Source: Moniliella sp. 'wahieum' (lineage: Eukaryota). Taken from it: a DNA stretch of 64,000 nucleotides. The DNA is taken from assembly GCA_003971905.1 (NCBI GenBank), contig RSEE01000012.1, positions 558,001-622,000 of the forward strand, given 5' to 3'. Made by a program: the position numbers and the translations under genes. This document shows positions 4,807-54,035 of the stretch, piece by piece (the stretch's first letter is position 1; each line of letters opens with the position of its first letter). The notes beneath the pieces were generated by a model. The model saw only the letters and a list, made by a program, of their open reading frames with translations. It searched no databases and was not told the origin of the DNA.

Positions 4807-5040
4807 GGACCACCACGTCCATACCGCAAAATCTATCCTCAAGTCTCCCCTGGCGTGTTATAGAGCAGTAGAAGCTGAGCGATCGAATCCATTGCCTGAA
4901 AGTTTACAGGTACTCGGGAGACACCTCTTGCTTTCCCTTATCTGGTTGTGGTTGCCGATTGTGGTACTCAACGAAGGACTTTTTCCAGGAAATGTAGTCG
5001 TGCTAATACTTATCGATCGTCTCATCCTCCTTTGACTTGT

Positions 5041-8341: not shown

Positions 8342-9815
8342 ATGGTCCACGTTGCCTCCCTCGCCCTCGTTGGCGGCTTGCTGGTCGGCCAGGCCACCGC
8401 CCACCTTGGCCACGGTGTCCCTGGCCACCTCACCCCCCGCTTGAAGGCCGAGGCCGCCAAGCGCGGCATGGAGCGCCGCCAGACCTCCTACAACGACCAG
8501 ACCTGGCAGTCTGTTTCCGCTTCGGCCGCCGAGTGCGCGGGCTACAACTATGCCCCCGCTCCTCCTTTAGCTCTCACTTCCCCGAGATTTGGGAGATTGC
8601 CTCGATTGTGCCTTCTGACACGGAGGCACAGAACGTGTGGAAGCAGATCCAGTCTTCTGGCGCCATCCCCAACATTGCCCCCAAGGGTACCCCTACCTCC
8701 TCCGAGCAGGGCACCAAGTACGACGAGAACACTGACCCCGACTGCTGGTGGACTGAAACGCTCTGCACCAAGCCCAAGCACCCCAACCTCCCCGACGACA
8801 TCATTGACTGCCCTACTCCCTCCACCTGGGGTCTCACCTTTGACGACGGTCCCAACTGCACTCACAATGCCTTTTACGACTTCCTCAAGTCGAAGAAGCA
8901 GACGGCCACCATGTTCTACATTGGTTCCAATGTGCTCAACTGGCCACTCCAAGCCCAGCGTGGCCTGACCGATGGGCACCAGCTCGCCGCCCACACCTGG
9001 TCTCACCGCTACACCACCGCCCTCAGCAACGAGCAGGTGTTCGCCGAGCTGTACTACACTGTCAAGGCCATCAAGTGGACGACTGGTGTCACGGTGACCT
9101 CGTGGCGGCCGCCTTACGGTGACGTTGACGACCGTGTGCGTGCGATTGCGCACGCGCTCGGCCTCGACCATCATTTGGACCGACGACACGGACGACTGGA
9201 ATGTGATCCCGTACGTTTTCGACTATGCTTTGTCTCTGTCGTGGCCTGGATTCTAACCCCTTTTCTTTGTCTCAGTGGTGGCACGGCGCCTACCGCTCGA
9301 TCCAAGCCAACTACAACAGTATCATTTCCAAGGGCAAGGGCCCGGCTGCCACGGCTGGTGTTGTCGTTCTCACCCACGAGATCAACGCCCAGACGATGCA
9401 CATGATGATGTCCGAGTACCCTACCATTGCCGCGTCCTTTGACCACATTGTGCCCGTGCACGTATGCCAAAACAAGACCCAACCGTACCGCGAGGGCTCG
9501 TACGTGTACCCCAACTTTGAACAGTACATTGCCGGCACCATCATGCCCTCGGGTGTGCCTGATGCACCGACATTACCGCGTCGGCGGTCTCGTCGATCCA
9601 GGTGGGCGCCATCGCTTCCTCGGCGCAGCTACGCTGAGCATTTCTTCCTCGGCTGCCCCGTCCTCGGCGGCAGCTGGCGGCAGCTCTTCCGCTGCGTGGC
9701 GCAGGCGTCCCAAGGGGGCGAAGAACGACAAGGCGAGCGGTGCCGCTTCCGGCGTGGCGGCTGTCGGTTCGTGGCGCTGGCTGTTGTGGGCGGCGCGGCG
9801 GCATTGTTCGTGTAA
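8342..9815 (+). CDS. Secreted, probably GPI-anchored chitin deacetylase (CE4 / NodB homology)
   Basis: Signal peptide MVHVASLALVGGLLVGQATA; dibasic ERR site; CE4 motifs TFDDGP, HTWSH, RPPYG, DTDDW, VLTHE; intron about 9211..9275; Ser/Ala-rich tail with a hydrophobic C-terminus. Confidence 0.9.
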
Positions 9816-14712: not shown

Positions 14713-16143
14713 ATGAGCTCCTTCCGCTTCCTCGCGCTCGTGCGCCCCTTCATGGGCGTCCTCCCCGAGGTCGCCGCCCGAGCGCAAGGTGCCGTTCCAG
14801 AGCCGCGTGCTGTGGACCGCCATTGTGCTCGGTATCTTCCTCGTCTCGTCCCAGATCCCCTTGTATGGCATCATGTCCTCCGACAGCTCCGACCCGCTCT
14901 ATTGGATGCGCGTCATCCTCGCCTCCAACCGGGCACCCTGATGGAGCTCGGCATCAGCCCCATCGTCACCTCGGCATGATCATGCAACTCCTCGCGGGTG
15001 CCAACCTGATCGAGGTCGACTTTAGCCTCAAGGAGGACCGCGCTCTGTTTGGTGGCGCGCAGAAATTGTTTGCCATTCTCATCTCCTTGGGCCAGGCCAC
15101 AGTCTACGTCTTGTCCGGCCTGTACGGCCCGCCGTCGCAGCTGGGCGCCGGGGTGTGCTTGCTGCTCATTCTCCAGCTCGTCGTGGCCGGGCTGATTGTG
15201 ATTCTGCTGGACGAGCTGTTGGTCAAGGGCTATGGCTTGGGCTCGGGCATCAGCCTGTTTATTGCGACCAACATTTGCGAAAGCATTGTGTGGAAGGCGT
15301 TCAGCCCCACCACTGTCAACACGGGTCGTGGACCCGAGTTTGAGGGCGCTCTGGTGGCCTTGGTGCATCTGTTGTTTACGTGGAACGACAAGACGCGTGC
15401 GCTCAAGGAAGCCTTTTTCCGCGACCGGTTGCCCAACGTGATGAACTTGCTTGCCACGCTGGTTGTCTTTTTGGCCGTCATTTACCTCCAAGGCTTCCGC
15501 GTCGAGATTCCGATCAAGTCGGTTCGGTTCCGTGGCCAGCAGGGCCGGTACCCAATCAAGCTCTTCTACACTTCCAACATGCCCATCATGCTGCCAGCAC
15601 CTGACCAGCAACGTGTTTATCATTTCGCAAATGCTCGCTTCGCGCTTCCCTTCCAACTTGCTTGTGCGTCTGCTGGGCGTGTGGGAGCCCATGGAAGACT
15701 CGCCGCAGCTCCATGCTGTCGGTGGCTTGTCCTACTACCTCTCCCCCCCCACCTCCTTGACCGCGGCGGCCCAGGACCCGCTTCACACACTGGTCAACGT
15801 TGCCTTTACCCTGGTCGTGTGCGCTCTGATCTCCAAGGCGTGGATCGACGTGTCGGGATCCGGGCCGCGCGACGTGGCCAAGCAACTGAAGGACAATGGC
15901 ATGGTCATGGCCGGGCACCGGACGGGTCAATGTACAAGGAACTCAAACGGATCATCCCCACCGCCGCTGCCTGGGGCGGCGCAACGATCGGTGCGCTCTC
16001 GGTCGCGGCCGACTTGATTGGTGCGTGCTTGGCTCGGGCACCGGCATCTTGATGGCTGTCACCACGATTATACGTACTTTGAGATGGGCTTGCGCGAATC
16101 GGGCGGGCCAGAGATGAACGCGCTGGGCGACCTGATCGGCTAA
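14713..16143 (+). CDS. SEC61: Protein translocon subunit Sec61 alpha
   Basis: [104 protein letters not shown]. Frameshifted by indels. Confidence 0.97.
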
Positions 16144-20421: not shown

Positions 20422-23400
20422 ATGGCCGACGCCGCGGCCAGCGCGGCCACCGCCAGCGCGTCACCTATGTCCTCCCGCTGCCCCGCGAACTCGGCGGCTG
20501 GCGCAACTCCCTCGGCCCCACCCATGCCCCGCTCCCGCCCCCCACCCACACGTTTGCCGTCCCCCCGCTCGTCCACCCGCGACCCCGCTCGCCTCGCCCG
20601 TCGTGGCCCTCTTCTCATCCCCCTGCACCCCCTGACAGCACCCCCTCCGATGCCGAGTCCGATTCTACTGCGCCTCAACCCGACCCCGTGTCTGCCACAG
20701 CCCAGCCGAGGCCATCCCGGTCTCGCTCCTCCCCTTCCCACCCGCGGCACATGCTCCCTGTCACCTCCCTTGCCCTCGACCTCACCACCTGTGTCGAAGG
20801 TGCTGACGAGCATCCACCCGAGCCCTCACCGACGAGCGCATCGAGCAGGTCGATGACGTTCTTCCGCCATCTCTGGGCGGTGGATTTGCCTCAACCCGTA
20901 TGCGTACCCCCCAGCGGCCCCGCGGCCTGTTGTACACGGCTGGACGCGATGCATTGATTGCCTCGTGGCAGCTGAACCTGCCTATGACTTGGTCTACGGA
21001 CACCCAACCGGACCCCGCCCAGCCCCTTCCTATCGCCCCTGGCGTGTGACACAACCTTACTGGACCCTTCACCCCGTGGAAGCGCTCAGTGCTGCTGGTC
21101 CTCCTCCGGCACCAGATGGCTTACTCCGCCGTCCCATCTTCCGCCAGGGGATTCAAGCGCACTCGGAATGGGTCAACGATCTCCTGCTCGTTAACGGGAA
21201 TCAGACTGTCCTATCCGCCTCGTCCGACCGACTGATCAAGGCATGGAATCCCCACGACCCAGCCTCCCATTCCACCTCCTTTACCCTAGGTAGCCACGAC
21301 GACTTTGTCAAAACCCTCGCGGCGCCGGCCTGGCAACTGGGTGCCGGACAAACCCATACCATCTTCTCTGGCGGCTTGGATCGGACGGTCAAGATGTGGG
21401 ACATGAATGCCAACCCTTCCAGACCACGGACTCGTCCTCGGCCGTGTTGGGTCCAGGCCGTGGCGCAGACAATGCGTCTGTCCCCCAGCCCGTTCTCACG
21501 CTCAACCAAGATGTGGATGAGCTGCCGTCGTCGGTCTACAGTCTTAGTGTGAATGGAAGCGGGAGTCTGATCGGGGTGGGATGCTCGGCGAATGAGGTGT
21601 CTGTGTACGATACGCGGAGTCGGATGCGGGTGGCCAAGTTGGTGGGTCACACGGGGTATGTTCGATCGGTGCTCATGTCGGCCGACGGACGCCACCTTCT
21701 CTCTGCCTCCTCCGATAGCACCGTGCGGCTGTGGTCGATCGCCGAGCAACGTGCGCTGCACACGTTTGAACATCATTCCGACTCGATCTGGGCGCTGTAC
21801 TCGCGCGATCCGTACGAAAAGGATACTCTCACCTCGTTTTATTCGGCCGACCGCGTAGGCGATCTTTGCAAAGTCGATTGGTCCGATGCACCCGACATTG
21901 TGAGCGGCGAATGTATTTTGTTGGCACGCAATCGTCCTTCCAAGTTCAACCGCCGCGGCAGCCATGTGCCCATTCCGTTGGACCCCGCCGTTGGACCCCA
22001 TGGCCTTCCGCCTCCGCATCACGGACCAAGTCACCAAGGCATCCACCGCATCGTGGCTGCCGACGATGCGTTTGTCTTTACTGCTTCCGACACTTCCTCC
22101 TCCGTCTTGGCCTGGCCCGATGTGCCCAAGCACAAGGACCGTCTTGCCAAATACCCCGCCATTGCCGCCCGTGCCCTGTCGGGTGCCGGGGGGGGCGAGA
22201 CGAGCTGGGCCAAGCAGGCCAAGAAAGCAATGCAGACCACGGATATTTCGTCGGCCGTCGAGATGGCCGGCATACCAGCTTGCAGTTTAATCTCCTTGGG
22301 CGACGACCAGAGCCCCTTTGACGATCGCCCGGCTGCCGATGGGTCCAGCACGGTCGACCGATCGACGACGCGAAACGTGCGCCCATCCCCGGGGTCAATG
22401 TCCCTGCTGCGAGACGGGGCCCATTCGGCCGCGCCGCTGTTCCGGCAGCCGTGTGCGCGCGTGTCGGGTGGGGTGGGCTTGATCCGCAGTTCCATGCTCA
22501 ACGACCGCCGCCATGTGCTGACGATGGAACACGTGGCTCGGTCGGAATCTGGGACGTTTTGCTGGGCGTTTGCCTGGGCTTTTTTGAGCGCCGAGCGCTC
22601 ACCCAGCTCGCGTTGGACGAGGAGGCTCTGACTGGCTCCGCGCTCTTGACCTCCGTCGCGGCTCCCTCGGCTACCGACATGAGCCAAGAGGCCATCACGT
22701 CCCTCCTTACCCAGTCGCCGGCGGACCTGCTCGAGTTGATCCGAGACCGGATCGAAGGTTCGGATGCGGCGCCGGCGTGGTGCACCACCGACGTTCGCGC
22801 TGGACTCTTGTCGGTCCATTTGCAGAGCAACACCTGCTTTGACGCCGAAATGTACCTGGACGATGCCGCGTTTGCCAGCAAAGAGGGGTCCGAAGAAGAT
22901 ACCAGGGGTACGTTGCGCCCTCTTTCTCTCTTTGGCCGGTTGGGCTAGTCTGTAATTTTTTTCCCGTACTGACCAAGGACTGTGCTTGTTGGGCAGTCAA
23001 CATGGGCCGCTGGGTCCTTCAGAACTTGTTCAGGGGGTTCATTGAGCAGGAGATTCGCGCTCGCAGTGGCTCGTATCGTGGAGCACAGTTGAGACCTCCG
23101 ACAGTGACGCAAACAGACACACTGCAGCAGAGGAGCCCAAAGCGTTCTCTTCTAGCCGGGATGCCCCCAAAGCGTTGGCGGCGCCTTTAAGTGCTAGCTT
23201 GGCCATCCCGCCTTCCGACAGACAATGGTGCTTCCTCCTGGCTCGGATTGCGGGGAACCCACCCAATGGTCGCCTTACCGCCCCTCTGTCCAATTGGACG
23301 TCGAAGTCGAGATGAAGGCACTGCAAGACGCATGGCAAGCCGTGCTTCGCGCCCAAGCGGCCACTTTGCCTACAAATACGGCAGAAAAGCACAATGGTGC

Positions 23401-24672: not shown

Positions 24673-24939
24673 CAATCGATCCGCACACCTCCATCTGCCA
24701 CTTCCGACCCCCACCATGCTTTCCTTTTCCATCCGTTTTGCTCTTGCTGGCTTGGGTACCCAGACCGTTCCTTTCCAATTCTTCTTTTTACCGTTTCCTT
24801 CTTCTTATCCCCTCTCCAACCCCTCATGCTTTGTGTGTCCCTATTACTATCCATACCTTTCTTTTTTTGCCCTGCACCCCCTGTGTTCATTGCAAGCATA
24901 CCAAAAAAGAGATGGACACGAACCCAGAGAGCACTGTAG

Positions 24940-25949
24940 CTAAGGCAAGCGGATCGAGTCGACGCGGATGCGCGTGTACTGCTCTTGGTGTTTCGAGTGA
25001 CGCTTCCACTTGCGGGGCATGTGTCGCACCTTGATCCAGACGGGTGAGTGGGTATGTTCGACGACCGTCGCTTCGATCTGCACGACCGGTTGGGCCGCAT
25101 CCCCCACGGCGCCGGCCAGAGCGGCGGAAGAGTAGGGCTCGGACGGAGTGGCGCGATTGCCGATCAACTCGGCCTGTTGCGGGGTAAGCCCGATCAGCGC
25201 AGCGAGCGTGGCACCCTTGTTGGCAATGCCATCTACCGACGCTGCGTTGGCCTCCCAACTGTTTTCCTGTTGCAGGCCCCGCTCGACAGCAAATTGCATC
25301 AAGGACTGGGTCCCTGGGACCGGGCAGTTCGCGAAACGAGCCTGGCACACGCAACCGCAGAGCCTCCAGTTCGGTATTGCGCTCGGACAAGGGCAGCAGC
25401 ACATTGTCCGCCGTCTTGCGCAACTGCTTGGCTTGCAGCCGGTGGTGCGTCCGACGCCAGAGCGACTCTTGCGCTCGCAACACATAGTCCCTCGTACCAA
25501 TCTCGTGCACACGGTCCAGGTGCAGCACATCCCCAATGTGCACGTCCGTCATCCCGGGCACCGTCACCACGTCGCCCGGGGCAACGAGATAGGTCTTGCC
25601 CAAGAACGAGACGACGGCATAGAGGTGGGTACTTTGGGAGCGCAGCAGCTCGATGGCTGTTTGGCGCTCCACCGCCTCCAGACGCGTTTTTTTGTCCACC
25701 TTGTCGCACGGAACGCCTTGGCGGGCACCTTGTACCCAGAACGGCTCATGATGTACTCGCCACGCTCCAGCGCACTCGGCGTCACCTTGACCGCCTCGGC
25801 GTCGGTCTCAATCTCGTGGAGGATGAGGGGGGGGGGTGGGGGGGGGGTGTGGGAGGGCGGCAGCCGAGGTGGCCAAGGCGCGATGGGGCCTGCGCGGCCT
25901 GCGCGGCGCGCAGCATGGCGCCAGCGCTGCTGCGGGCGAGGAGCACCAT
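24940..25949 (-). CDS. Mitochondrial ribosomal protein bL21m
   Basis: HLYAVVSFLGKTYLVAPGDVVTV..MTDVHIGDVLHLDRVHEIGTRDYVL and VQIEATVVEHTHSP..IKV...KHQEQYTRIRVDSIRL (L21 family); Arg/Ala-rich presequence. Confidence 0.82.
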
Positions 25950-28190: not shown

Positions 28191-28721
28191 AGGTGTGTTG
28201 GCCCAGCTGCCACCATGGACCCCCTACCGAGCAGCGCATGCGCATGCGCTCCCAGGCAATCCCAAAATAATGCTCTCGCCTCCAGCTTCAAGCTTCAAGC
28301 TTCACTAGTGATAGGCTGAGGTGACAGGACCCAGGCTGTGACAGAAGAGGTAGTTCACCCGTACACAGCCCGTTCGAATTGTCAGTACGTGCATCAGCCT
28401 GATGCATGATTCTTGATGCTGAGCAGCGCTGATTAATGATTCTGGAGGGTCGATGGGACGCAATAGGACAAAAAGACGCGCAGCGGAGTGAGCTAGTGAC
28501 TAGTGACTAGACTAGTGCTAGTGACGCGTGATGCTAGGACAGGCCAAATTGGGATTGGATGGAGAGCGGCACGTGCCAACGAATAAGACAGGCAGGACAG
28601 AGTGGATGGGCTGGGAGAAGGGAGAGTTGTGATCTTCAACATTGAACCACCGCAGTCGGCGTGTTCTTCTCGGCGGGTTAGGCAAGTGGTGGCCCGGGCG
28701 CGAGGCGCAAAAACGGAATGT

Positions 28722-28938
28722 TGTAAGACCGGAGGAACCCAAGGGATTGGGTGAAGAACCTCTGGAAATGTAGAGCAATGCAATCGCGATGGTGGTGGTT
28801 GAGGTCTAAGCCTTGTGCCACACCTAGAGACAGGGGTTCAGACAAGCCTGAGTATACACGTGGAGGCTTCGGAGGACAAATCAGGGGTGAAGGGTGATGA
28901 GGCGCCTTGGCCTAAGTACGGGACCACGGGTCCCAACA
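28722..28938 (-). repeat. 3' LTR (217 bp)
   Basis: TGTAAGACCGG...GGTCCCAACA on the + strand; direct repeat of 34092..34307. Confidence 0.95.
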
Positions 28939-29003
28939 CCCCCCGGGCCAAGGGAACGAAAGAAGCCCGTTGGCCATCAACAAAAGAAAAAGTAGAAAGG
29001 GGA

Positions 29004-32000
29004 TCAGCGCGAAGAAAGAGAAGCCAAATCGAAATTGTTACGCGCAGAAATGATCTTGGGAAGAGAAAGAGGTTTGGTGAACCAGTCAGGGAGATGGTGT
29101 GCACCTGGAGTGTAGTGGACTTTAATTTCGCCTCGGTGGATGCGTTCCCGCACCTCGTGGTACGAGACGTCAATCTCCCGTATTTTGCCTAGGCTGCCGA
29201 GCTTTTCGGCCAACGCTTTGGCAGCGGTGTTGTCAACAAAGAGCTCAATCGGGTGATTAGCCTTGCAGACACCAAGTTCAAACAGTATGTTGCGAATGAA
29301 TAGAGCATCTCGAAGGCCATCTCCCATGGCTAGGTATTCAGATGCTGCTGTGTTGCTCACACCTTGATTTTGGGACTTGGAGCCCCAGGATACAGGCACA
29401 CCGAAAACAAAAACAACATGGCCCGAAACGGAGTGAGAGTTGCTCTTGTCTGATGCAAAGGAGGCATCGGTGTGCAGCTCGAGTAGAGGGCGAGATCGGT
29501 TGGGTGTGAGGCACAAAGAGTAGTCAGACGTACCGGCGAAGAAACGTAATAGGTCCTCCGCTGCGCGTCGGTGGGCGGCGGACGGGTCGTCCATAAACCG
29601 CGCTAAAAAGGTAGCCGCAAAGAGGGCATCAGGCCGGGACATACGAGCCGCCCACAAGCTGGATCCGACAATAGAACGGTAGGCACGGTGCTCGTCTCGA
29701 GTGGCACGCTTTTCGTGTTCGGGTCGCTTGGGAGGCGGAAGTTGGTGGCCGATTGGAAGGTAGCGGGGCCGTGAGGTGAGGTGATATGTCATGCGCGGCA
29801 AGCGTCTCAGCGATGAATTTGGGTTGGCTGATGTACAGTCGTCCATCGATACGGTCGTATTGGCAGCCGAGATGGAAACGTAGGGGGCCGTTGGACTTAA
29901 TTTGGATGCTGCGCCTTAATTCCACTAAGAATTCATCATACGCTTCTTGGGACCGACACGCGACCAAAAAGTCGTCAGTGTGGACGGCGATTAGGATCAG
30001 GCCAAGAGGTTCGGTGCGACGACGTATGAACAGGCAAGGCTCTGATTTTAGGCTAGTGAAGTGGAGTCGGTCGCAAAGGAAAGTGCGGAGCCAATCTCCA
30101 AAGTTGGCCCCGCTCTGGTGCAGGCCATAGAGACTTTTCTTGAGTCTCCAGCAATGACCGGGCGCTTCTGGGAAGAAGGGGGGTGGTCGAACATAGACGA
30201 GCTCGTTGATATCGGCATAGAGGTAGGCAGCTTCCACATCGGCAGAAAATAAGTGGAGGCCATCAGCTTCGGCCAACGCAATTAGCGTGTTGACGGCAGC
30301 AGTACGAACGGCAGGAGCAAAAGATTTCGCCCATGTGCCAGGAACTTGCCGGTGCCCTCCCACAACGTAGCGGGCACGGTACTTGAGGAAGTTAGCATCC
30401 GCATCCGTCTTAGTACCTATGACCCACATGCCGGGAAGGGGTTTGATCCCTGGGGGGATGGGTACAACTTCCTTCACGTCACGCTCGTCAAAACGCCGAA
30501 GCTCGAGGCGCATTGCCTCGAGTACGCCATCAAAGGCAGGGTGACCCACCAACTTCTTGATGTTCTTGGGGGCCACCGGGACCCCATCGGTGGTCAGTAT
30601 GACCTCGGTGTCACTTGCCGCGGATTCGATTGCGAGTGCGATGGGGGGCGAGCTTGGCTCCGAAGCAGGTAGCATGGATGTGTCCGGCGCTGGTCCGAAA
30701 ATACTCACCAAAGCCTGCATTCCTAGGGCGGAGAGGGCGGCCGGGTTGCCAAAGATGCTAGGGGCCTTGTTGACGAGCAGGGAAAAGGTGCCATCGCGCA
30801 AATTGTCGTTGGCTGGAATGGACAGGTCGAGGGTGGAGCGTTGATACGCGCTTGGCGAACGGGATTGCGACGCACGAGTGGGGACGGCTGTATCGGTCAG
30901 GGGCACGGTCACGGGGGCGAGCGTGTCGGTGGGGAAGAGAGGGGAGGGGGATAGGGCGGGAGAGGAAGGGGAAGTGGAAGAGGGAGGGGAAAGCAGGACT
31001 TGGTGGCCAGTGTCAACGGCATCTTCTGTGATAGTTTCATTTTCTTCGGCTTGCTTTGCCTGGCGTTGTGCCATGCCTGCGGGGTCAGATGCAACAGGTT
31101 GGGGGGATACATGTGGGGGGTTGGAGTTGGTGGGAGTGGGGCCAGGCTCTGAATTCTCATTTTCGTTGGCTTGAGCCGGGCGATGTGCCTCATTAGTATC
31201 GCGGGTCAGTTCATCTATCGCAAAACGCACACGCCGGGGTGGGGAGCTGTCTGACTTCCCACCAGCACCCATTTCTCCGCCCCCCCGCACCTCTCCGCCA
31301 CCAGCAGGGACAAGGGGGTTCAGATGAAAGTGCGTGGGATATTCGGTGGTGTACGGGACATGTGTCCAGGTGGACGGCTTTTTCCAACGGAATCCAACTT
31401 GGCCGTCGTCCTGGTGGATGGCAAAGAGCCACCCTTCGAACCGCGGCCGTGCCCGTAACCCACCAACATTGCTGGGACGGCCCGCGGACCAAGTTTGCCG
31501 CCCTCGCGTTGGTTGGGCAATAGGTGCAGGTAGGCAAGAGTGCCAAAACCGCGCATGCGAAGGGAGGGTTTGAAGCCATGGTACCGGACAAATCGGCTGT
31601 CCCCACCCAGTGCTTTCGGCGGCGACTGGTTGTGTGCATATGTGGCCGCCAACAAGCTGTGTTCCCACCACTCGTCGGGAGTCAATCTGTTGGCGATTAC
31701 CATGAGTCGAGCGCGATCCGTAATCGATCTTATGGCGCGTTCGGCGACCCATTGGACGCACTTTCGCCAGGATTGGTGCGCTCGCTCACTACTCCCAGCT
31801 CGCAGTAAAACTCGTCCATTGCGGTGGTGAGTTCAGGCGCATTGTCAGAGCGGACCGTCTGAAGGGGGCGGTCGGGATGTTGGCGATGCTCGCGCCGGAT
31901 GAAGGCTTGAAGTTCGGCTGTGGCATCACCCTTGGACACCAGGGGTAGCGTCCAGGTATACCGCGTAAAGTCGTCGACAATGATAAGGGCGTAAGTATGA

Positions 32001-32709
32001 CCCCGCCGCCTTGGCGGGATATGTCAAGGACGTCGAGGTGGAGGAGAGAGAAAGGGCGAATGGTTCGGATTGGGCGTCCAGTCGTGGCGTGGGGTGGGGC
32101 AGTGGCTCTGCTTAATGCGCATGGTGCACAGTGCCACGAGGACCGGACTAAAGCGATGTCGCCACTGTTGACCCGTTCGAATGCTGGGTCATCCGACGTG
32201 AGGGATGAAAGTTGATCTAGAGGTGCATGATTCCATCGGATGTGGGCGTTTTTCACCTTGACCAGGGTTGCATCAAGGTTGAGTAGCGAAGTGGCGCTGT
32301 TGGCTGTGGCTGTCGTATTGGGCGCCAGAGTAAGGGAATAGCTTGAGTCGGCGGCGAGACGAAAAGGTTCGCCGTGTCGTCCGAGATAGAGACCATGGCC
32401 ACCTGGAGGGATCCAGCTGCCAATGCCTGCGATAGATAGATGGTAAGCGCTGAGCAGGTTGGTCGGGAAGGTGGGGCAGTACAAGCTGCCGGGTAGGTGG
32501 ATGCGGATAGGGGCTCCGTTCTGGGTTTGAATGTACATAGAGATGGTGCCAATGCCTTCAGTGTATGCGATCTGTCCGTTTGCCACTGCTATGGGCTCGC
32601 GGTGTGGACGAAGATTGATAAACGCACTTCGTTCATTGAATACGGATGGTCTCGCACCTGAATCGTGTTGCGCAGGGAGGTTGGCTGGCTTAGGGCCTCC
32701 CGCGCTGTC
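29004..32709 (-). CDS. pol: copia Pol (protease, integrase, RT, RNase H)
   Basis: HDSGA protease motif; AHIRWNH...CAPC integrase zinc finger; LLHLDV and VRSDNAPE catalytic motifs; RT motifs KYRARYVVGG, DVEAAYL, LKKSLYGLHQSG, VHTDD; RNase H motifs HTDASFA, WGSKSQ, VDNTAA, PDWFTKPL. Several indels. Confidence 0.93.
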
Positions 32710-33985
32710 CTAGTAGGGGTGAGGAGGGATTGTGGACACGACAGACTCCGTTTCAGTCGATGTGGCTGACTCGGGTGGTGTAGTGGCTGCCATAGGGGTT
32801 ACTGCATGGGCAGATGAGGTGGTCTGGGCTGTCGTAGCCGGCCGGCTAAAGTGGCCGCCACGTTGGCCACCACGGTGACTTCCTCTGTACCCGCTGCCAC
32901 CTCGGCCTCGTCCGCGGCCTGTCACCGTACTGCTTGTTTGGCTGTGCGACGTGGCTTCCGAAGGGGCCGTACTGGAGGGAGCTGGGCTTGAACTGGAGGT
33001 ACTGCCGTAGTTGGAGCCTTTGAGTTCGCTCACTGCTCGGCGCAATTCGGCGTAGCTGCTGTTACGATGGAGGTGCAACCACCCCTGATCAGTAACGCCT
33101 TTCCGTAGCATCTGTGCTAGACCAATCTCGTCCAGCTTGGACTTGGACGTCATCTCGTACTGGGTTACCGCCACAGTGAACTCATTCAGGTATTGGCGGC
33201 CCGACTTGGTGCCCATTTTGAGAGTGAGAACCTTTATGAGGATATCACAGATCTCAGTGTCTGAAACGGTGCCGTACAAATCACGCAGAGCATGATAGTA
33301 TGCAGACCCTAGAGCCGGCGTGCCATCGCCGGTGATCTGCTGGACGACGTCGGAGTCTATCCACGGGAGTAGAATGTTGGCCAAGTGAGCGTCCAGTTCT
33401 GCGTTATACCCGTCCAGGGCCTTGCCCTGTTCCAGATGCTCACGCGCTCCAGGGATAATCTGGATACGAGGGAGGAAGATCCGGGTCCATAACCAAAACG
33501 AGCTGTTGTTGTGGAAACGCTCGTGGTACGGCACGTTGGTGCGAGTGGCACTACGGAGGAGCTTGTCGGGAGTCAAAGCCCACGGGTTGTCGTCGACGGC
33601 CGGAGTTGACGATAAGGCACCTTCGTTCTTGCTAGCATTGGGTGGATTCTCACATGATAACATGACAATGGCTTCTGTGGTCGTCTTTTCGCTGTACCCA
33701 AGCTTGATACCAGTGTCCTGTAGCTGTTTGAGGGTGATGTGTTCGGGAAACAATTTGAACATGTTGCGAATGCGGTCGGCGAGGGTGGCGAGTCGTTCGC
33801 GGTGTTGTCGGGGCCCACGGGGGGGGTTGAGGTGTAGGGGTAGATTCACGCGATGGTGTCAGCGGCGGGGAGGCGTGGTCAACTCCGACGGGAGTGGTGC
33901 TCTCTTCTGCGGCGGCAGTTGGTGAAGTAGGGGTTGAGGAGTTGAACCAAGACTCCTGAGTCTGAGAGCTCATGATGCTTGCCAT
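32710..33985 (-). CDS. gag: copia Gag
   Basis: ORF 32710..33849, probably starting at ATG 33985 across an indel; gag-like core (YYHALRDLYG..LKMGTKSGRQYLNEF) and an RGG-rich C-terminus; ends in a TAG that is in frame with pol. Confidence 0.8.
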
Positions 33986-34091
33986 TAGCTTACGCAGTTC
34001 GAGCAAGCGCTTGTGGATAGGGCCGGCAGCGGAGGACCGAAGAGTGTAAGAGTGGAAGGCTCAGGGCTGAGCGTCAAGAGGATTGTAACTC

Positions 34092-34307
34092 TGTAAGACC
34101 GGAGGAACCCAAGGGATTGGGTGAAGAACCTCTGGAAATGTAGAGCAATGCAATCGCGATGGTGGTGGTTGAGGTCTAAGCCTTGTGCCACACCTAGAGA
34201 CAGGGGTTCAGACAAGCTGAGTATACACGTGGAGGCTTCGGAGGACAAATCAGGGGTGAAGGGTGATGAGGCGCCTTGGCCTAAGTACGGGACCACGGGT
34301 CCCAACA
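34092..34307 (-). repeat. 5' LTR (216 bp)
   Basis: Direct repeat of 28722..28938, followed by the TSD AATGT. Confidence 0.95.
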
Positions 34308-35646
34308 AATGTGGAACGGGCAAGCAAGAGCTGGTGGCCAGGGGCCGGTGGTGCGGCGGTGCGGCGGTGCAGCCGGGGTGCCGGGGGGCGGGGAGGCGAG
34401 AGATGGTTGATGGCGAGTGGCGAGTGGCAAATTGCAAATACCAAGTGGCGCCAGGACGCAGGATGCAGGAGGCAGGACCCGTCTACGTACCACGCACCGG
34501 TAGTTAGTTATAGTTGGTAGTTGTTCGACTGGGTCTTCTGGGGTCGTCTTGGACCGCATGGACCGCCTGGGCTGTGAGAATCTGAGAGAGGGTGGGGTGG
34601 AGTCGCAAGAGGTGTGACAGGCGTGACGACGGTGACAGGGAGGGTGGACTGGTGAGTACAGTGGGGAGCCCCAGTGGCGAGTGGTGTGACATGCATGTGA
34701 CATGTGAAGCTTGCAGCTCGCTTGAAGCTTGGCAGCAGCAATGGCCAGCATCCGTCCGGCTAGTATAGCCCTAGCGGCTACTTTTGTAGTTGAACGCGTA
34801 GCTACGCAGCCAGTTGGGTCGGACGTTGAACTTGAACTTGAACACGCTGGCCACAGCCAGTCGGAGCTGTGCAGTTGTGGCCGAGCGATCGAATCTTAGA
34901 TCGTGGGTGTTGATCGACTGGGGCCGAAGCGACAAGCATTAAGCATGGGCCATCTGCGGGCTGAATCTCCCGCAAGCTGTATGCCTGCTAGGGCTAGGCA
35001 GCTGGAAAAGCTTCGCATGGCATCCTCGGACATGCCAGGCGTCCCACGGGGCAGTGCCGGGGGCGGCTCGTCTGCGTGCTGCGTGCGTGATGTCACCAGA
35101 GGCAGGGACATGTGACAGTGACTAGTGACTAGTGACATGTGATCGTGACTGGTGACGGTGACAGGCAGATCTGGGCCCGCAGTGCCTGGTGCTGGTGCCG
35201 GGGGAGCAGTGGCGAGGGGCGCGTACCTGGTCGCAGCCGAGGCTGCAATTTCAACGCGCAGGTTAGCTTAGCCGTTGGCGGACACGCTAATCAACGTTGA
35301 TTGCTGAGTGAGTCCAGTGTGGATGCAGGAGGAGCAGCAGGCGAGCATGTGGTCGGTGGATTAGCTAAGCGGGGTGTGGTGCTGTGCCGGCGCTCGGGGT
35401 GAGGCGAAGCAGGATGCTGGAGGGAGGCGCACACGCTGGATGCGACGCTGCGCAACAGGCCTCTCGCAGCGCACGCAGAGCCCTCGGTGCAGCACCCGCA
35501 CTCGCACCAGACTCTAGCACGCCCTCCTCGTCCCCCCGACCCACACCAGCCCACGCCGCCCGCCCGCCCCCACCCCGCCTCCTCTCTCCCGCGCCCCCGC
35601 ATGGCCTGAGCACCCTTGCCAGCACCCCACCACCCTCTCCACCGCC

Positions 35647-38600
35647 ATGCCCACTGCCCCGCCCAACCCCCCGACCCACCCACTCCCCCGCTCTTCGCCC
35701 GTCCACTCGCCCCGTGCGCGCCGCCTCGACCCGCTCGATCCTCCCGACCCCCTCGACCCGCCGCCCGCCCCACCGGTCGCTCCGCCGCCCCTGTTCCGCC
35801 GCCTGCTCCCGCGCCCGCTCCAGCTCCAGCTCACCACCATCACCACCGTCGCCGCGGATTGCTGGACCGCATCCGACACCCTTCCAGCGCCCATCACGTA
35901 CGTTCTCCACCCCGCCCCTCCCCCGCCACTGCGTCGCGAGCGCATGTACGCTGACGGCTTTCCCCAGTCCCCCAGCCCCCTACCGCCTCCGATCTCACAG
36001 GATCCTTCGCGCCGCACAAGCCAAGAGGGCAGCATCCGTTCCTTCTCTCGACCACTTCCATCCTCAAACGAGCCCCACCGCCTCGCTTACCTCCTTTCCA
36101 TCAGTCGCCGCGCTCCCGACGCCCTTGGCCCCGAGATGGAGGCGCCCGCACGTCCTCTCGCCCCCATCCGTCTCCTGGCCCCACTCATCGCCCATCCTCC
36201 GCGCCCACCCATCGCTGACCCGCCCTCGTTGAGCGCGTTGACCCGACTTGGACCTGGCTCCGGGCTCCCTCCACCCAGACGACTCGGCGTCGTCCGACCC
36301 AGCTACTATCGCCGATCGCCGCGCCACCATATTTACCCACCCGCCCCGGTGGACCGGCAAAAGAGCGCCCCGCCAACGAGTCAAGAGCACCTGTCCTCTC
36401 ATCGTGGCGTCCCCTCCAGTACGCCGCCTCCCGTCCCAGGGCCAGACTCGATTGCGAGTCACGACCAAGCGTCAGAGACATTGGAGGAGGAGCTAGCTCC
36501 GATCCCCATTACCACTGTTCTCACCGGGTCTTCGTCGGATTCCTCCTCGTCGCCTTCCCCTTCCAGGCGGACGTAATGCGGCGAGTGCGCTGTTGTGCCC
36601 CACAGCGCCTCTTCATCGGAGCAAGGCCGGAATAGCACCTCGAAACGCACCAAGTTCCACATTCCGCGCCTTTTTGGACGACATGGCAAGCAGCATGACC
36701 ATCCCGGCTCGAGGGAGCCCACTCTTCCCGCCGCGATTCCCCATCTATCCACGAATTGCATCAGTCCCAATCCACCCTTCGCTCAAGGGCAGCAAACGGG
36801 GCAAGACCGGTACCGGTACCCCTCCAACCAAACGGCTGAAATCGCCGCCCCCTCGGCATGCCCACCAGTGTTGGTCTTGATGTGGAACTAGAGGGTACAG
36901 AACGCTCAAAGCATGTGCGCCCCACGCCGTCGTTTCGCAACCTACGTCTTCCTCTACCAGCCAGATCCCGAGGCATCGGTTCTTCGAGCCAGACGCAGCT
37001 CAAACCGCCAAGTAAGCCGCAACTGGTCCCCCAGGGCAACCCTTCAGTCCTCTATCGATTTTGGTAAGTGGTCATGGGACGAATCTCACCCATTCCGGGT
37101 CGTCTCAGACGCAGGCTACCCGTCTACGACCACTTTGGGGCTGATCAATCGAGTGAAGTGGCCCCCCTATATGCCCCCACCTCCTCCAGCCCGGCCACTG
37201 CTGCCGCGTCATCGCTTCAGCCGAGCCCAAACCCGTCCCGGGGTCATATTTCAACTGAGCATACAACATTACCTGCGCCAGTCTGCCTACCGTCTCTCAC
37301 CCCGTCTGGTGGCGAAGTTCCCCAGCCTAGTCCTCACCCGACCTGACCAAGTTGCCCGCAAAGACCATGTTTGGTGCGGCGACGGGTGGCGATCCAACTC
37401 CGACTCGCGACCTTCAGCTTCGCCTCTTGCAGGATCTTCGTCGCTCAACGACTTCCCGCTCGGGCCGGACTCATCACGCCGCTTGCGCGCCAATGCCCCA
37501 CGGGTATCCCCTCGTACCTCATGCCCATATCGAAGCAGTGCGCCTACCTGGCATCCACCTCCCCTCTTCGGAAAAGGAGGATGCTGTCTTTGTCGCTTCC
37601 CCTACAACGCATCGGGATCAGGTTCCAGACCAACTTGTTCTTGGGACCAGGCATCCTCCATTCCTCGCAATGCGTCTCCTAGTGCCTCCAGACAACGCGA
37701 GGTCGTACGTCTGACGCAGCATGCCTGCCTCATCGGGAGCTCTGGCACCAGAAACATCCAGGTCGCGCACCTTCCAATTGGTCCGCTCGGACAGTTGGGC
37801 TGTCGAACCTTTGTGAACAAAAGCGGCAGTGGCCCTTCCTCTCTGGGCAAAGTCACAGGTGCATCCACCTGGATGGCGCCCCCATCTTGGGCAGTGGAGT
37901 TGGACGTGCCGACGCGAGGGCGAGCGCCTGCGTCCAGTTCCGCCTCCGCCGCGGGGGGCGAGCCAACAGCGATGGGAACGTCTTCCTGGATGGCACCTGA
38001 CTCGTGGGCTGTTCAGGCTGATCAAGGAGTTCGAGACCCAGGCGACTCGGACGAAGAAGACTCTCCTCGGCCGCGGGGATCGTTCGAGCCCAGCCCGGGC
38101 AGGACTGGGTCTGGGTCTCAGCCTCAGGAGTCGGCTTCGGCTCCTCTTACTAACCCATCCGCCCACAACGGTCGCCCACGAAGGTCTGACTCATCGGGGC
38201 GCGACACGTTAACCTCCCTTCCTCTTCGCCAAAATCGTCTCCAATCTGGACGGAGTCAGTCGCATGACCGACTTCCCCGGGAAAACATCGCACCTGGAAA
38301 GGACTCCATCGTGCCCGCCAACGGCACCTTCAACTCAAGTGTTGGCTCCTCTAAGACGCCTACGCCTCCTCTCTCGCGATCGAGCACGCCTACATCCTTG
38401 TTCCCCTTCCAATGAGTCAGGCTCGGTCCACCGCCCTTCGAACGCAGCGTCGACGACCACCGGTCTCTCGACCCGTTCCGACCTTGACTCGGTGGACAGT
38501 GTGGAGGAGATGCTGGATCCGCTTTTGCGATCCCAGGCGGGCAGGTCGCGTGGACGGGCGGAATCGCCATCGGGTCACCCCTCTGCCGAGTCCTCCTTCT

Positions 38601-41600
38601 CCATCTTCCGCCGAAAAGAAGAGCCAGGCGAGTCAAACACACGGACCAGTGCATCTGCCGATGGCCGCCTGGATTCGGTGCCCTGCCCAAACCCCACAGC
38701 AAGCCGACTGCCCCCGCGGGTAGTCAACTCGAGAGGAGGAGGCGGTGCGCTGGCGGCAGCGTCCGGTGCGGTGGGAACAGCGGCATCCATCTTTGGTCTG
38801 CGCACGGGATCGCCCCGGGTTCTGGGTCGGTACCATCACCATCACCACAACCGCGACCGCGATCGCGGGGACCGAGATCGTGAGCGGACGGGATCCGAGG
38901 CGAGTGGGGCGGGTCAGCCCATCTCCACCTTGTCTCCGCTGCCTGGGCGCATCGGGATCCAACGCGTCGTCTTCGCCTCGCCAAGGCCTTCACCGCCCCC
39001 TCATCCCACCGGTTCCAGCGGGGGGAGTGGTGCAGCGCTTCACGCTCTGGCCAACATGGGGTTGGGAGGCAGCATGGGTTTGGCTGGAATGGGAGAGCAT
39101 GCGTTTCCGGCGGGGCCACCGGCCATGGGACACGCCATCCTTGCTCCGCCCCACTTGGGTGCATTTGGGAGCAAGAATGGTCGCGACGCGGCCTCGATCC
39201 ATTCACAGCAGTCGGTTGGTGCCATCAGTGCCCATACGCCCCCGGCATCGGATGAGGAGGACTTGCTGAGCATGTACCGCCATGTGGTCCACGCCAAGGA
39301 ACCTGTCCGTCGTTTAGGCCGCTCTTCCACCTCTGCCTTGAATGCGAACGCATCGGACGCTGCATCTACCTCGAGTCGATTGACAAAACTCAATTTGGTC
39401 CGCATCTACCGGCCGGACGGCACGTTCGCCACGCTCCGTCTCACGTTGCAAAACACGACGGTCGAGTGCAAGGCCATCATCACGCGCAAAGTGTCGTTCA
39501 TGTCGGCCACCACCTCGGCGTATCGTCTTTTTGTCAGAGACAAGGGTGCTGGTATGTCTATAACTGCTTTCCTGGCCGAGTGCATGGGTGTGTGTGCCTG
39601 ATTTCTAACCTGTGTTGGTACCGCGAGAACGTCCTGGGCCCAAACGAGAAGCCTGCTTTGATCCAACGCCGGCGTTTGATTCAAGCCGGGTACAATGACT
39701 CGGACGGGCTGGAAGATATGGGGAAGGAGGATCTGTCCTACTTTATCAAGTTTATTTACCGCCCCGACTTTGTCCCCACGTTCGATTCAGAGAGCTTTGG
39801 GAACGACAAGGCTCACTACACTCATCTTGATGTGCATGGCCGCAACCTCGAGATGGTCCCCATCTTTCTATATAAACACGCCGACTGGATTGTCTCGCTG
39901 GACTTGTCGGGCAATCCCATGTCGGATGTGCCGGCGGACTTTGTACAGATGTGCACTCACCTGCGTCGGCTTCGGCTGCCAACTTGGCGCTCAAGCGGAT
40001 TCCCTCGGGTGTGCGTGTCTCGGCCTCGATCACTCATCTTGACCTGAGCAACAACCGCATCCTCCAGCTCGAGCCATCGCTCGAAGGGTGCCGGGCGCTG
40101 CAGTCGATCAAGCGCTGAACAACCGCCTGTATCAACTGCCGCCCTGGATGCCCAGGGTGGAAACGTTGCGCTGCCTCAACCTCTCCAATAACCGCTTTGA
40201 CACTCTCCCCCATTGTCACTTCGCTGTGCAACCTGGCGGAGCTGGACCTCTCCTTTAACAGCATTCGTCAACTGCCCCCCGAAATTGGCCAGTTGCAAAA
40301 GCTGGAGCAGTTGATCCTCGTCGGCAACTCGATCGAAAACCTGCCGGACCAGATGGCCAATCTGGGCAACCTCCACACGATCGACTTGCGCCGCAACTTG
40401 GTTCACGATGTCAGCATCCTCTTCCACATGCCGCGGGTGAATGTGGTCAAATGCGGGCACAATTCCATCCGCCACTTTGAAGCGACGCTAGGTGAGCGAA
40501 TGCGGATTCTTGAAGTGGGACAAAATCCCATGACCAAGGTATCCTTGGGCGCCTTCTCGGCATCGGACTTGACCAGCCTCAACCTGAGCTCGACCAACAT
40601 GGCCCGGTTGGACGAAGGCCTGTTCCGTCTGTTGCCCTCCCTCACCGAACTCATCCTCGACCGCAACCAGTTTGTTACCCTTCCCGACTCGCTGGGGGAA
40701 CTGGCCAACTTGATCGTCTTTAGCTGCAACAACAACAATTTGGCCACCCTTCCCGACTCGATCGGAAACCTACGCAAGTTGACCAGGCTCAACATTCAGA
40801 ACAACAACCTCAAGCGTCTTCCGGCCTCCATTTGGAATTGTGCTTCTCTCTCACGCTTGAATGCCACATCGAACTTACTCGAAGCGTTTCCCCTTCCGCC
40901 CCTTGTCTCGCGCCCATCAACGGCAACCCCAGCTACCGGCTCCATCTCGTCCAACCCTCTCGACACAGCAACCGAGACTGTTCCAGGCACCGCTACCGAC
41001 TCGGACCGGAAGGGCTCAGTTGGCTCGATCCAGGTCCACGCGGTGGTGCGACGATGGCGAGCTCGGTGGAGGATGTGCGTCCGTTGGCCAAGAGCTTGCG
41101 CCAGTTCCGTGCCGGAGACAACCATTTGGCCGACGATGTGTTCACCATTCTGCATCTCTTTACCGACCTGGAAGTGCTCAACCTCAGTTCAACGAGATTT
41201 ATGAGGTGCCCCCCAACACGTTGTCCCAGCACAAACGGCTACAGGAGCTGTACCTATCCGGGAACAGTCTGACCAGTGTCCCGAAGACCTGTCGCAACTG
41301 CGTGAGCTCAAGGTGCTCTTCTTGAACGGAAACAAGCTCCAAACCCTGCCGGCCGAGTTGGGACAGATGACGGCCTTGGTCGAGTTGGATGTAGGGAACA
41401 ACAACCTCAAGTACAACATTGCCAACTGGACGTACGACTGGAACTGGAACAACAACCCCGAACTTCGGTATCTGAACCTTAGTGGCAACCAACGCTTTGA
41501 GATCAAGTCCAAGATCCTCACCCTCAACGGTCGTCGAAAGAATATCTCTGACTTTGGGGATTTGCATTCGCTTCGCGTGCTGGGCCTGATGGACGTTACG

Positions 41601-51900: not shown

Positions 51901-54035
51901 CAGAGGGCGCAACCACGGAATAGTATGCGCAACTCTTCCCTGTGGATTCGTTCTAGGATGGAGCCTCGCCGAGCTCCACCGTCCCCCTGACACGAGTCAG
52001 CGTGATCTCCTCGGCGTCGGAAGGTTCTTATGCCAATGACTGGGATGTTATTAATATGGCAAAGGCGGGGTCGATGAGCCGGTCAAGGCGTAGTACCGCC
52101 GCCCTTTCTCGGAGGAGGAAGGGTGTATCCACTATATCGACCATTTACGAGGATGGTGGGGAAGTGCAGAATGGTCCCTCCACTTCCAGCCCCCCCGAAC
52201 CAGCTCCCACTGCAGTATCGGGGAAAGACCGTCGGTATGGGGATCGATCAAACTCGCAATCAGGCAAGTTCCCAACAAACCCGTCCTCTTTTTGGTCTGT
52301 TGGCCACAGTCATTGACGGTCTCGCGGCTCCTTCATTTTCGCTTGTCCTGGGACGCTTGATGGCGGATGGGCGGAGGCTTGCCCATCGCCCACTCAACCA
52401 TTTTGACCATGAGCATGGCGCTCTTGGGGCTGGCCATCGCTCGAGGTCTCGCTACGTTTGGACGTTATATGCTGCTCGAGTCGGCTGCCGACGAGTGGGT
52501 CAATTCGCGTCGGCTGCAGGCTTACCGTGCTATTTGGCCCAAGACAAATCGTGGTTCGATACTTCCTCCTTGGCTTCATCACAGAAAATCACAACGTGCA
52601 TCGCCAAAGATGCCGAGGACGCACGCAAGCTCATCGCGTTTGCATTGGGTGAACTGTTGAGCTCGGCGTGCCTGATGACTGGGTCTTTGGTGGTGTCGTT
52701 TGCGTTTGGATGGCAATTAACATTGCTGGGATTGGGTTTTGGGGTGCTCTTCATATTGATTTTTGGGTGGAATGCACAGGCACTGGCACGAAGCGAGGCT
52801 CGCAACAAGCTCCTCAGAAGAGTGTTCAAAGGGTCTCTTTCTCCTTGTTTCGCACATCCGCGCCATCCGCTCCATGGCTCTCGAGCCCGTCTTTGGCACC
52901 ATGTTCAGCGAAGCTGTTGGGGCAGCCTACCGGGACGCAATGCGCACTGCACCACTAAATGGGTTCGGCGGGGGCGCTGCTGAGGGGATGCAGTATCTAG
53001 CCGAGGCGGGGATCTATGGCCTAGCATCCTTCCTCTTGTCCCGGGGGACCTGTGATCTTACGCAGGTCACAACCACACTCAATGTGCTCATCTTTGCCGT
53101 CAGCTTTGCCGGACAAGGCGCCATCTACATCCCCCTTCTGTCCAAGTGCACTAGAGCTCATGTGGACCTGGAAAGATTGGGCTCTCTCCTGTTGGCCAGG
53201 TTCCGAGGCCGAGGGCGAGCTAAGCCCTGCTATGATGCAAGGGGGTCCAGTTCCGGGACGTTGCCTTCTCCTACCCCGCTGCACCTCAAGTTCCTGTGCT
53301 CAAAGGTGTCAACTTGACCATTGCGCCAGGGGAACGCGTAGCGATTGTGGGCAGCAGTGGATGCGGGAAATCAACGATGGCCGCGCTGCTACAACGTCTG
53401 TATGAGCCAACCAGAGGGTCCATTCACTTTGATGGGACTCGCTCCAATCAAATTATGGTCCGCTTTTTGCGGGATAAGCTGGCAGTGGTGAACCAAAGCC
53501 CCGATCTGTTCCCTGGGTCGATTGAGGAGAACATTGCCTATGGTTCAGCCCACATGGTTCTTTCCAGCAATGCTTCCAGTTGGGAGCTGTTCCCGGCAAA
53601 GGAGGCCTTGGACAAGGCGACGCGGGAAGCCCTCGTGTTGGACTTTGTTGCGTCTTTGCCCGACGGACTCAAGACAGTGGTGGGCGAGCACCAGACGGCC
53701 TTGTCGGGGGGACAAGCGCAGCGTGTGGCGTTGGCACGCATGCTGGCTCGAACGGAGGCACGATTGCGTGTCCTGGACGAATTCACAGCTGCCCTGGATC
53801 CAGCAACCCAGATGGGCGTTCTGGATTCCGTCTTGTCTCGATCTACCTTGCCGAGAAGGGCAAAGATCGAAAGACGACGGTTGTTGTGACACACAAGGTG
53901 AACATTATGCGGCGGTGCGACCGTGTGATTGTGCTGGATCAGGGGCGGGTGGTGGAGCAAGGTCCGTTCGATTCGCTTTTGGCGCGTGGGGGGGCACTGG
54001 CTCATTTGGTTGCCTCAAACGAGGCAGAGCAGTAA
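48946..54035 (+). CDS. Full-length ABCB transporter, Ste6/Mam1 (lipopeptide pheromone exporter)-like
   Basis: TMD-NBD-TMD-NBD layout; Walker [10 protein letters not shown] and GSSGCGKST; signature LSGGQ twice; Walker [11 protein letters not shown] and [18 protein letters not shown]. Start uncertain, many indels. Ste6 orthology is inferred, not tested. Confidence 0.8.

Follow-up and report, generated by a model that had tools for sequence, protein, structure and literature searches.

Retrotransposons of the Ty1/copia superfamily usually express gag and pol either from a single open reading frame (ORF) with splicing, as in Drosophila copia and plant copia elements, or by +1 frameshifting, as in Ty1. 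In-frame stop codons between gag and pol are rare in these elements. Here, we describe a complete Ty1/copia element with a UAG codon between gag and pol, located on the minus strand of a 64,000-nucleotide (nt) stretch of the genome of Moniliella sp. 'wahieum' (contig RSEE01000012.1, positions 558,001 to 622,000). This whole stretch is referred to as the window, and positions are counted from its first letter. The gag-UAG-pol element is real, and readthrough of the stop codon is the likely mechanism of its pol expression.

Tca2 (pCal) of Candida albicans, the best-studied fungal copia element with such a stop, has a single stop codon, followed by a predicted 3' structure, between a gag and a pol that share one frame, and its mechanism is non-canonical or still lacks an accepted account (PMC2194720). 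VdLTRE5, a Ty1/copia element of the ascomycete Verticillium dahliae, has a UGA between gag and pol, an organisation called rarely observed by its authors; the stop is described as lacking the CARYYA motif, and the passages describing it mention no 3' structure (PMC3441728). The fission-yeast Ty3/gypsy elements Tj1, Tcry1 and Tosmo1-3 carry an in-frame stop between Gag and Pol that is conserved across relatives and is reported to be essential for Tj1 transposition; it lies in a short GAA-TGA-CT context, strictly conserved and without an accompanying structure (PMC10085805). In murine leukaemia virus (MuLV), gag and pol share one frame, the UAG is followed by a G and by an RNA structure 8 nt past the stop, and Gag is produced in excess, with Gag-Pol arising by rare readthrough (PMC3159437, PMC4178896). 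A separate class of leaky stops, found in alphaviruses, tobraviruses, furoviruses and two genes of Drosophila, kelch and headcase, is stimulated by a 3' stem-loop that starts a few nucleotides past the stop and often contains a 1-nt bulge. The documented stimulators of this class have stems of 10-14 or more base pairs (bp) and spacers of 7-12 nt, backed by synonymous-site conservation and compensatory changes (Firth et al., PMC3159437).

The element in the window resembles Tca2: both are fungal copia elements whose gag and pol share a frame and are separated by a single stop with a predicted 3' structure. It differs from Tca2 in its stop codon (UAG here, UGA there) and in its host (a basidiomycete rather than an ascomycete), and no sequence relationship beyond the superfamily is seen between the two. 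With the Tj1 group it has in common the in-frame stop between Gag and Pol, but it belongs to the copia and not the gypsy superfamily, and its stop has the context UAG-GA followed by a hairpin. The shared frame, the UAG followed by G, and a hairpin core at 8 nt are as in MuLV; the element is, however, a fungal Ty1/copia retrotransposon, not a retrovirus. Like the usual copia elements it would need more Gag than Pol, but its junction is not open like theirs, and the frame does not shift from gag to pol. Among copia elements, it joins Tca2 and VdLTRE5, with UAG rather than UGA and in a basidiomycete. Searching the full texts of an open-access library, we found no basidiomycete copia element with a gag-pol stop, and do not claim that none is in print.

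The junction comprises the following features.

32713..33762, minus strand: gag ORF of 350 codons, counted from the earliest main-frame ATG and ending in STIPPHPY; 70-71% identical to the related protein P0002 over the full length.
32710..32712, minus strand: in-frame TAG between gag and pol, followed by G; P0002 ends at the residue preceding the TAG.
29007..32709, minus strand: pol, encoding protease (PR), integrase (INT), reverse transcriptase (RT) and RNase H (RH), with the terminator TGA at 29006..29004.
32653..32664, minus strand: protease active-site motif DSGA, 15 codons past the TAG in the same frame.
32670..32705, minus strand: hairpin with a 6-bp core GGGAGG/CCTCCC starting 8 nt past the TAG, a 15-nt loop, and a 4-bp extension GCGC/GCGC past a bulged T.

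The open frame of gag extends from 33858, and the first ATG in it is at 33762. The codons following the TAG are GAC AGC GCG GGA GGC, and translation past the stop reads DSAGGPKPANLPAQH-DSGA, so that gag, the TAG and the protease-containing pol are all in one frame. This frame stays open to 31792 and is therefore in register with the ATG-started ORF 31789..32586. The first-pass annotation had placed a TAG at 32712..32710 between gag and pol in frame with this ORF, and its coordinates, codons and frame are exact. It had also called the TAG the only interruption before the DSGA motif, which holds; further on, the pol of this copy shifts frame six times. In the window copy, the stretch from the TAG to DSGA contains no ATG, the first one past the TAG being at 32586, beyond DSGA; therefore, the protease-containing pol cannot start at its own AUG, and initiation at an internal AUG was rejected. 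No tRNA genes, and hence no nearby suppressor tRNA, were found in the 64-kb window. The terminators of pol (TGA) and of the host gene for Sec61-alpha (TAA) are uninformative on the use of TAG by the host.

A private nonsense mutation would appear as a sense codon at this position in sister copies, as the first-pass annotation had pointed out. We compared gag read through the TAG into PR-INT (587 residues) with 1.84 billion representative proteins in an exhaustive HMMER search, which gave 44 matches, two of them gag relatives (P0002 and P0004). Residues 163-507 of P0002, a 507-residue gag protein, align to residues 2-350 of the query and end exactly at the end of the window gag. The two proteins are identical at 246 of 350 residues (BLASTP), including the last octapeptide, STIPPHPY. 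A word-indexed search of a 5.8-billion-protein set, restricted to the range of 322-1028 residues, returned P0002 as the sole match. The RT region matched 44 proteins of 757-2410 residues, of which only P0047 (96% identity) and P0006 (55%) are close relatives, the rest being 35% identical or less; none of these matches, whose length range would admit one, is a fused gag-pol protein of this copia family. P0047 is an uninterrupted pol of 1210 residues, identical to the window pol at 1142 of 1205 matched codons (94.8%, frameshift-aware alignment). It begins with MPANLPAQHDSGA, its first residue corresponding to a Lys (AAG) of the window copy, 7 codons past the TAG. The more distant pair of P0004, a truncated gag fragment of 224 residues, and P0006, whose pol begins inside integrase, says nothing on the stop.

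At the protein level, the stop is thus not private to the window copy: P0002 ends at the aligned residue, P0047 is a separate and intact pol, and the position of the stop is shared with the one close relative (1/1) that has a readable junction.

Amino-acid differences from the sister amount to 100 of 347 codons in gag and 63 of 1205 codons in pol. From these missense counts and the codons of the element itself, neutral decay would be expected to produce 4.6-5.3 nonsense codons in gag and 2.3-2.6 in pol, about seven in total, the pol expectation being slightly inflated, because some of the 63 differences fall within a 53-nt stretch read in different frames. Neither gag nor pol contains a nonsense codon besides the shared boundary stop. 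Both ORFs have therefore been kept open, and the stop between them has been kept as well. Such a combination of open ORFs and a retained stop is the signature of a functional gag-stop-pol arrangement.

We consider it fairly probable that the stop is the natural end of gag maintained by selection, and that pol is made by readthrough, with the following G and the hairpin as candidate stimulators. In this family of copia elements, the UAG would end gag, and selection would keep the stop so that most ribosomes make Gag alone. A small fraction of ribosomes would decode the UAG with a near-cognate tRNA and produce a Gag-PR-INT-RT-RH fusion, by in-frame readthrough of the type seen in gammaretroviruses and in a small number of retrotransposons. 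The Gag:Pol ratio would then be governed by a leaky stop within one frame, as in MuLV and Tj1. Readthrough may be stimulated by the G following the stop and by the GC-rich hairpin, with its 6-bp core 8 nt downstream. It is favoured because gag and pol share a frame and no ATG lies between the stop and DSGA. It also has precedents in MuLV, in Tj1 and its fission-yeast relatives, and in the copia elements Tca2 and VdLTRE5. The observations that frame this proposal are the stop, the shared frame, the stop in a sister with intact gag and pol, and ORFs that are otherwise free of stops; we infer from them that the bypass is translational readthrough.

A more elaborate form of this proposal, which we put forward tentatively and regard as rather unlikely, is that a basidiomycete copia lineage independently evolved a retrovirus-like module. 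It would consist of UAG-G and a GC hairpin positioned at the mRNA entrance of the ribosome, include the strictly conserved, pyrimidine-rich STIPPHPY codons directly upstream as a part of the signal, and serve as a boundary for the exchange of gag cassettes. Such a boundary would explain why identity to the sister is 71% in gag and 95% in pol.

A number of observations weigh against readthrough stimulated by the hairpin, several of them concerning the hairpin itself. Its parts are the spacer GACAGCGC (32709..32702; 5 of 8 nt are purines), GGGAGG (32701..32696), the loop (32695..32681) and CCTCCC (32680..32675); the extension is formed past the bulged T at 32674 by GCGC at 32673..32670, which pairs with GCGC at 32705..32702. 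The stem, 8-nt spacer, 15-nt loop and bulged extension are all present as the first-pass annotation had drawn them. However, the 8-nt spacing, which had been compared with that of MuLV, holds for the 6-bp core only, and the full 10-bp stem shortens the spacer to 4 nt. The core alone is worth -8.6 kcal/mol. In favour of the hairpin, RNAfold predicts it for a 48-nt sequence as the minimum free energy and the centroid structure alike (-17.9 kcal/mol), and it is retained in a 116-nt fold. An equally good fold is reached by 8 of 200 dinucleotide shuffles (z = -1.97), 43 of 1703 45-nt windows inside the element (2.5%), 4.6-5.0% of 7107 windows on each strand across the whole 64 kb, and 50 of 3000 versions in which its 15 codons were recoded synonymously (1.7%). 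By these four controls, the hairpin is modestly unusual, within the top 1.7-5%, and the fractions are generous to it, since the stem was sought after the TAG had been seen.

The hairpin also departs from the characterized stimulators. MuLV needs a compact pseudoknot together with specific spacer and loop-2 bases, whereas the structure here is a simple hairpin. The first-pass annotation had failed to identify a second stem, and our duplex search agrees: pairing of the 15-nt loop with the 70 nt that follow gave no pseudoknot stem, the best duplex (-5.0 kcal/mol) being matched or beaten by 91.7% of 1000 shuffles. We therefore rejected the pseudoknot, and the element stands outside the MuLV-type signal class, which the pseudoknot defines. 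Its base-paired stem with a 1-nt bulge shortly after the stop recalls the stem-loop class, for which about 10 bp or more at a distance of about 6-12 nt are typical. Unlike the members of that class, it has 6 bp if the stem starts at +8 nt and 10 bp, with a bulge, if it starts at +4 nt, and is seen in one sequence. It is a plausible stimulator of the stem-loop type, weaker than those examples. Rfam detected nothing at the junction, its three sub-threshold matches being chance hits in the LTRs. The context UAG-GAC fits neither of the short readthrough contexts named in the reports on related elements, CARYYA (PMC3441728) and UGA-CU (PMC10085805). Tca2, which the first-pass annotation had cited as a copia readthrough element, is a weaker precedent than stated, since the experiments reported for it in Saccharomyces cerevisiae gave no readthrough from the junction alone (PMC2194720); a stop with a predicted structure is thus no guarantee of canonical readthrough. 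A contribution of the hairpin to the bypass of the stop is possible, although we are inclined to doubt it. Of the earlier proposal of programmed readthrough, the part that gains support is the stop, common to a sister with intact pol, and the part that does not is the hairpin as its signal, given the modest fold statistics and the missing pseudoknot.

Other reservations concern the sister. For P0002 as for P0047, a single Logan contig is recorded, in both cases 5549 nt long and thus of approximately the size of the element; from these equal sizes we conclude that both proteins very probably derive from the same sister element, organised as gag-stop-pol. The sister is known as protein only, and the type of its stop codon, the frame relation of its ORFs and the hairpin are not visible there. 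In 13 of the 44 junction matches, all of them copia proteins of more distant elements (25-36% identity), the junction is uninterrupted, and an open junction is the copia default. Identity to the sister is 71% in gag and 95% in pol, and the change falls within some 14 codons of the stop, which suggests either very unequal constraint, with gag evolving faster, or the exchange of gag modules at the junction. The two elements may accordingly be recombinants, and if gag modules were exchanged by recombination, the stop would be shown to be conserved only over a shallow (5%) divergence.

The window copy as assembled also has eight frame breaks, six in pol and two upstream of gag. Relative to P0047, pol has lost 1 nt in each of three G runs (32003, 31746 and 31435), shifts frame and back again at the compensating pair 30882/30829, and carries an insertion of 4 nt at 29778 that is unlike a homopolymer error. 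The quality of the assembly can be gauged from a host gene in the same window.

14713..16140, plus strand: Sec61-alpha, intronless; intact homologue P0091, 478 residues.

In comparison with P0091, to which it is 100% identical in the region searched, the Sec61-alpha gene contains seven frame-breaking indels in 1.43 kb, and several of those displayed sit in short G/C runs. An essential single-copy gene cannot be so broken; the assembly is therefore indel-prone, and most frame breaks of the window copy are probably assembly errors. The rate of such errors seems to be roughly one per 200-700 nt, and the sole difference between the LTRs is likewise a one-base indel. Because Sec61-alpha is broken as well, the interrupted pol frame is no proof of a dead copy. 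More generally, frameshifted genes in this window should not be taken as pseudogenes, given the frequent single-base indels.

Four other explanations of the junction need to be weighed against selected readthrough. The stop may be real and conserved, yet bypassed without stimulation by the hairpin, through basal, context-independent leakiness or through a non-canonical bypass or separate expression of the kind proposed for Tca2 (dispersed signals, an internal promoter or non-AUG initiation). This is conceivable but unlikely. It would account for the weak hairpin statistics and the missing pseudoknot, and it has a parallel in Tca2, where the junction is reported to be insufficient for readthrough and an internal promoter was found (PMC2194720). 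The sister pol ORF, called with a start codon 7 codons past the stop, would fit separate expression as well, but that start position is not conserved, being Lys in the window copy, where DSGA is preceded by no ATG after the TAG. The frame shared by gag and pol is what readthrough requires, though it is also the copia default. Alternatively, the TAG could be a nonsense mutation that arose once in a defective master, both copies being non-autonomous passengers mobilised by other elements. The eight frame breaks, the absence of the first 70 codons of the sister gag from the window copy, and the open junctions of distant copia elements (13/44) are what a dead lineage might show. We nevertheless consider it improbable, as the sister ORFs of 507 and 1210 residues are intact, 163 amino-acid differences have accumulated where about seven nonsense codons are expected and none occurs besides the boundary stop, the stop is placed exactly at the gag/PR boundary, and the same kind of frame breaks affects an essential host gene, where they are likely assembly errors.

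The TAG could also be the end of an in-frame intron, removed in some transcripts so that gag is fused to pol. The pyrimidine-rich run ATCCCTCCTCACCCCTAC, followed by TAG and G, resembles a polypyrimidine tract with an acceptor site; an in-frame GTAACC lies 93 nt (31 codons) upstream, and the eight codons of the tract are the sole fully conserved part of the gag tail. However, the fungal splice-donor consensus has a G at +5, which this weak candidate lacks, and the donor is not conserved, the corresponding codon of the sister encoding Leu, which cannot begin with GT. Splicing is thus very improbable. That a poor assembly produced the TAG through a wrong base call is hardly credible. The assembly is indeed error-prone, as the seven frame-breaking indels in Sec61-alpha demonstrate, but these counted errors are indels (substitutions were not tallied), whereas a substitution would be required to create the TAG. 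No indel error explains this stop, because it is a substitution-type feature and P0002, from an independent source, ends at the same residue.

The element containing this junction is complete, and its boundaries are as follows.

28722..34307, minus strand: complete Ty1/copia long terminal repeat (LTR) retrotransposon of 5586 nt, delimited by direct repeats, LTR alignment, and ends with a target duplication.
34308..34312, minus strand: target-site duplication ACATT on the 5' side, with its twin copy at 28717..28721.
34092..34307, minus strand: 5' LTR, 216 nt, TG...CA; identical to the 3' LTR apart from a single G in a GG pair.
28722..28938, minus strand: 3' LTR, 217 nt, with a purine-rich tract ending in GGGGGG just upstream.
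33763..34048, minus strand: stretch upstream of the gag ATG, homologous to residues 71-160 of P0002 in two other frames, with 1-nt deletions at 33822 (in a C8 run) and 33787.

The LTR pair differs by no substitution and one single-base indel, and the near-identity of the LTRs marks the insertion as young. Pfam families on the element occur in the order Pol_BBD (protease region, in the same ORF as DSGA; E = 4.3e-9), SH3_retrovirus (on the C-terminal side of integrase) and RVT_2 (E = 3.5e-37), and the sister pol P0047 carries PF22936, PF00665 and PF07727. The domain order PR-INT-RT-RNaseH was confirmed by tblastn of P0006 and P0024. With its TG..CA LTRs, 5-bp target duplication, PR-INT-RT-RNaseH order and RVT_2 domain, the element is a member of Ty1/copia (Pseudoviridae). 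No second copy was found in the 64-kb window by blastn and tblastn, which matched only the element itself and its LTR pair. A scan of bacterial and archaeal genome contigs with P0047 yielded 44 pattern matches, none of which was confirmed.

The gag protein matches no Pfam family, and no CCHC zinc knuckle was found in it; its C-terminal part is rich in RGG, Ser and Thr. The stretch RGRGRGGSGYRGSHRGGQRGG is kept in the sister and may be the nucleic-acid-binding part, in place of a zinc knuckle. Homology to the sister gag begins 43 nt past the 5' LTR. A conserved N-terminus of 70 residues (MSWI.TY...), common to P0002 and its cousin P0004, has no counterpart in the window copy, and in the lineage of this copy the gag 5' end seems to be lost or replaced. 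Candidate gag starts in this copy are MASIM... at about 33985 and MFKLF at 33762. The integrase-RT linker (30830-31150, minus strand), a fast-evolving, low-complexity spacer, shows many in-frame indels relative to the sister, and one stretch of 53 nt is read there in another frame.

The best named matches of Sec61-alpha, at 90% identity, are from Jaminaea rosea, Testicularia cyperi, Kalmanozyma and Ustilago species, and the host is by this similarity a Ustilaginomycotina-like basidiomycete. The first-pass description of a young, basidiomycete, copia-type element agrees with the substitution-free LTRs, the 90% identity of Sec61-alpha to basidiomycete proteins, and the copia domain order. Other genes of the window are the following.

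3611-5032: mitochondrial-type ribosomal protein S9.
8080-9402: polysaccharide deacetylase.
21294-22628: WD40 protein.
24890-25807, minus strand: mitochondrial-type ribosomal protein L21.
52078-52980: ABC transporter fragment.

In neighbouring ORFs at 38213-41204 on the plus strand, a weak, sub-threshold RA-like domain match (E = 9e-4; 20 bits, cutoff 27 bits) is followed by leucine-rich repeats, a layout that may resemble that of fungal adenylate cyclase.

Programmed readthrough of host genes has been reported in Ustilaginomycotina (Stiebler et al. 2014, cited in PMC10085805). If our interpretation is true, the element would represent a second fungal copia family, unrelated to Tca2, with a gag-pol stop shared by an intact sister and with a simple candidate hairpin. 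It would then offer a tractable system for studying the use of readthrough by a copia element to set its Gag:Pol ratio.

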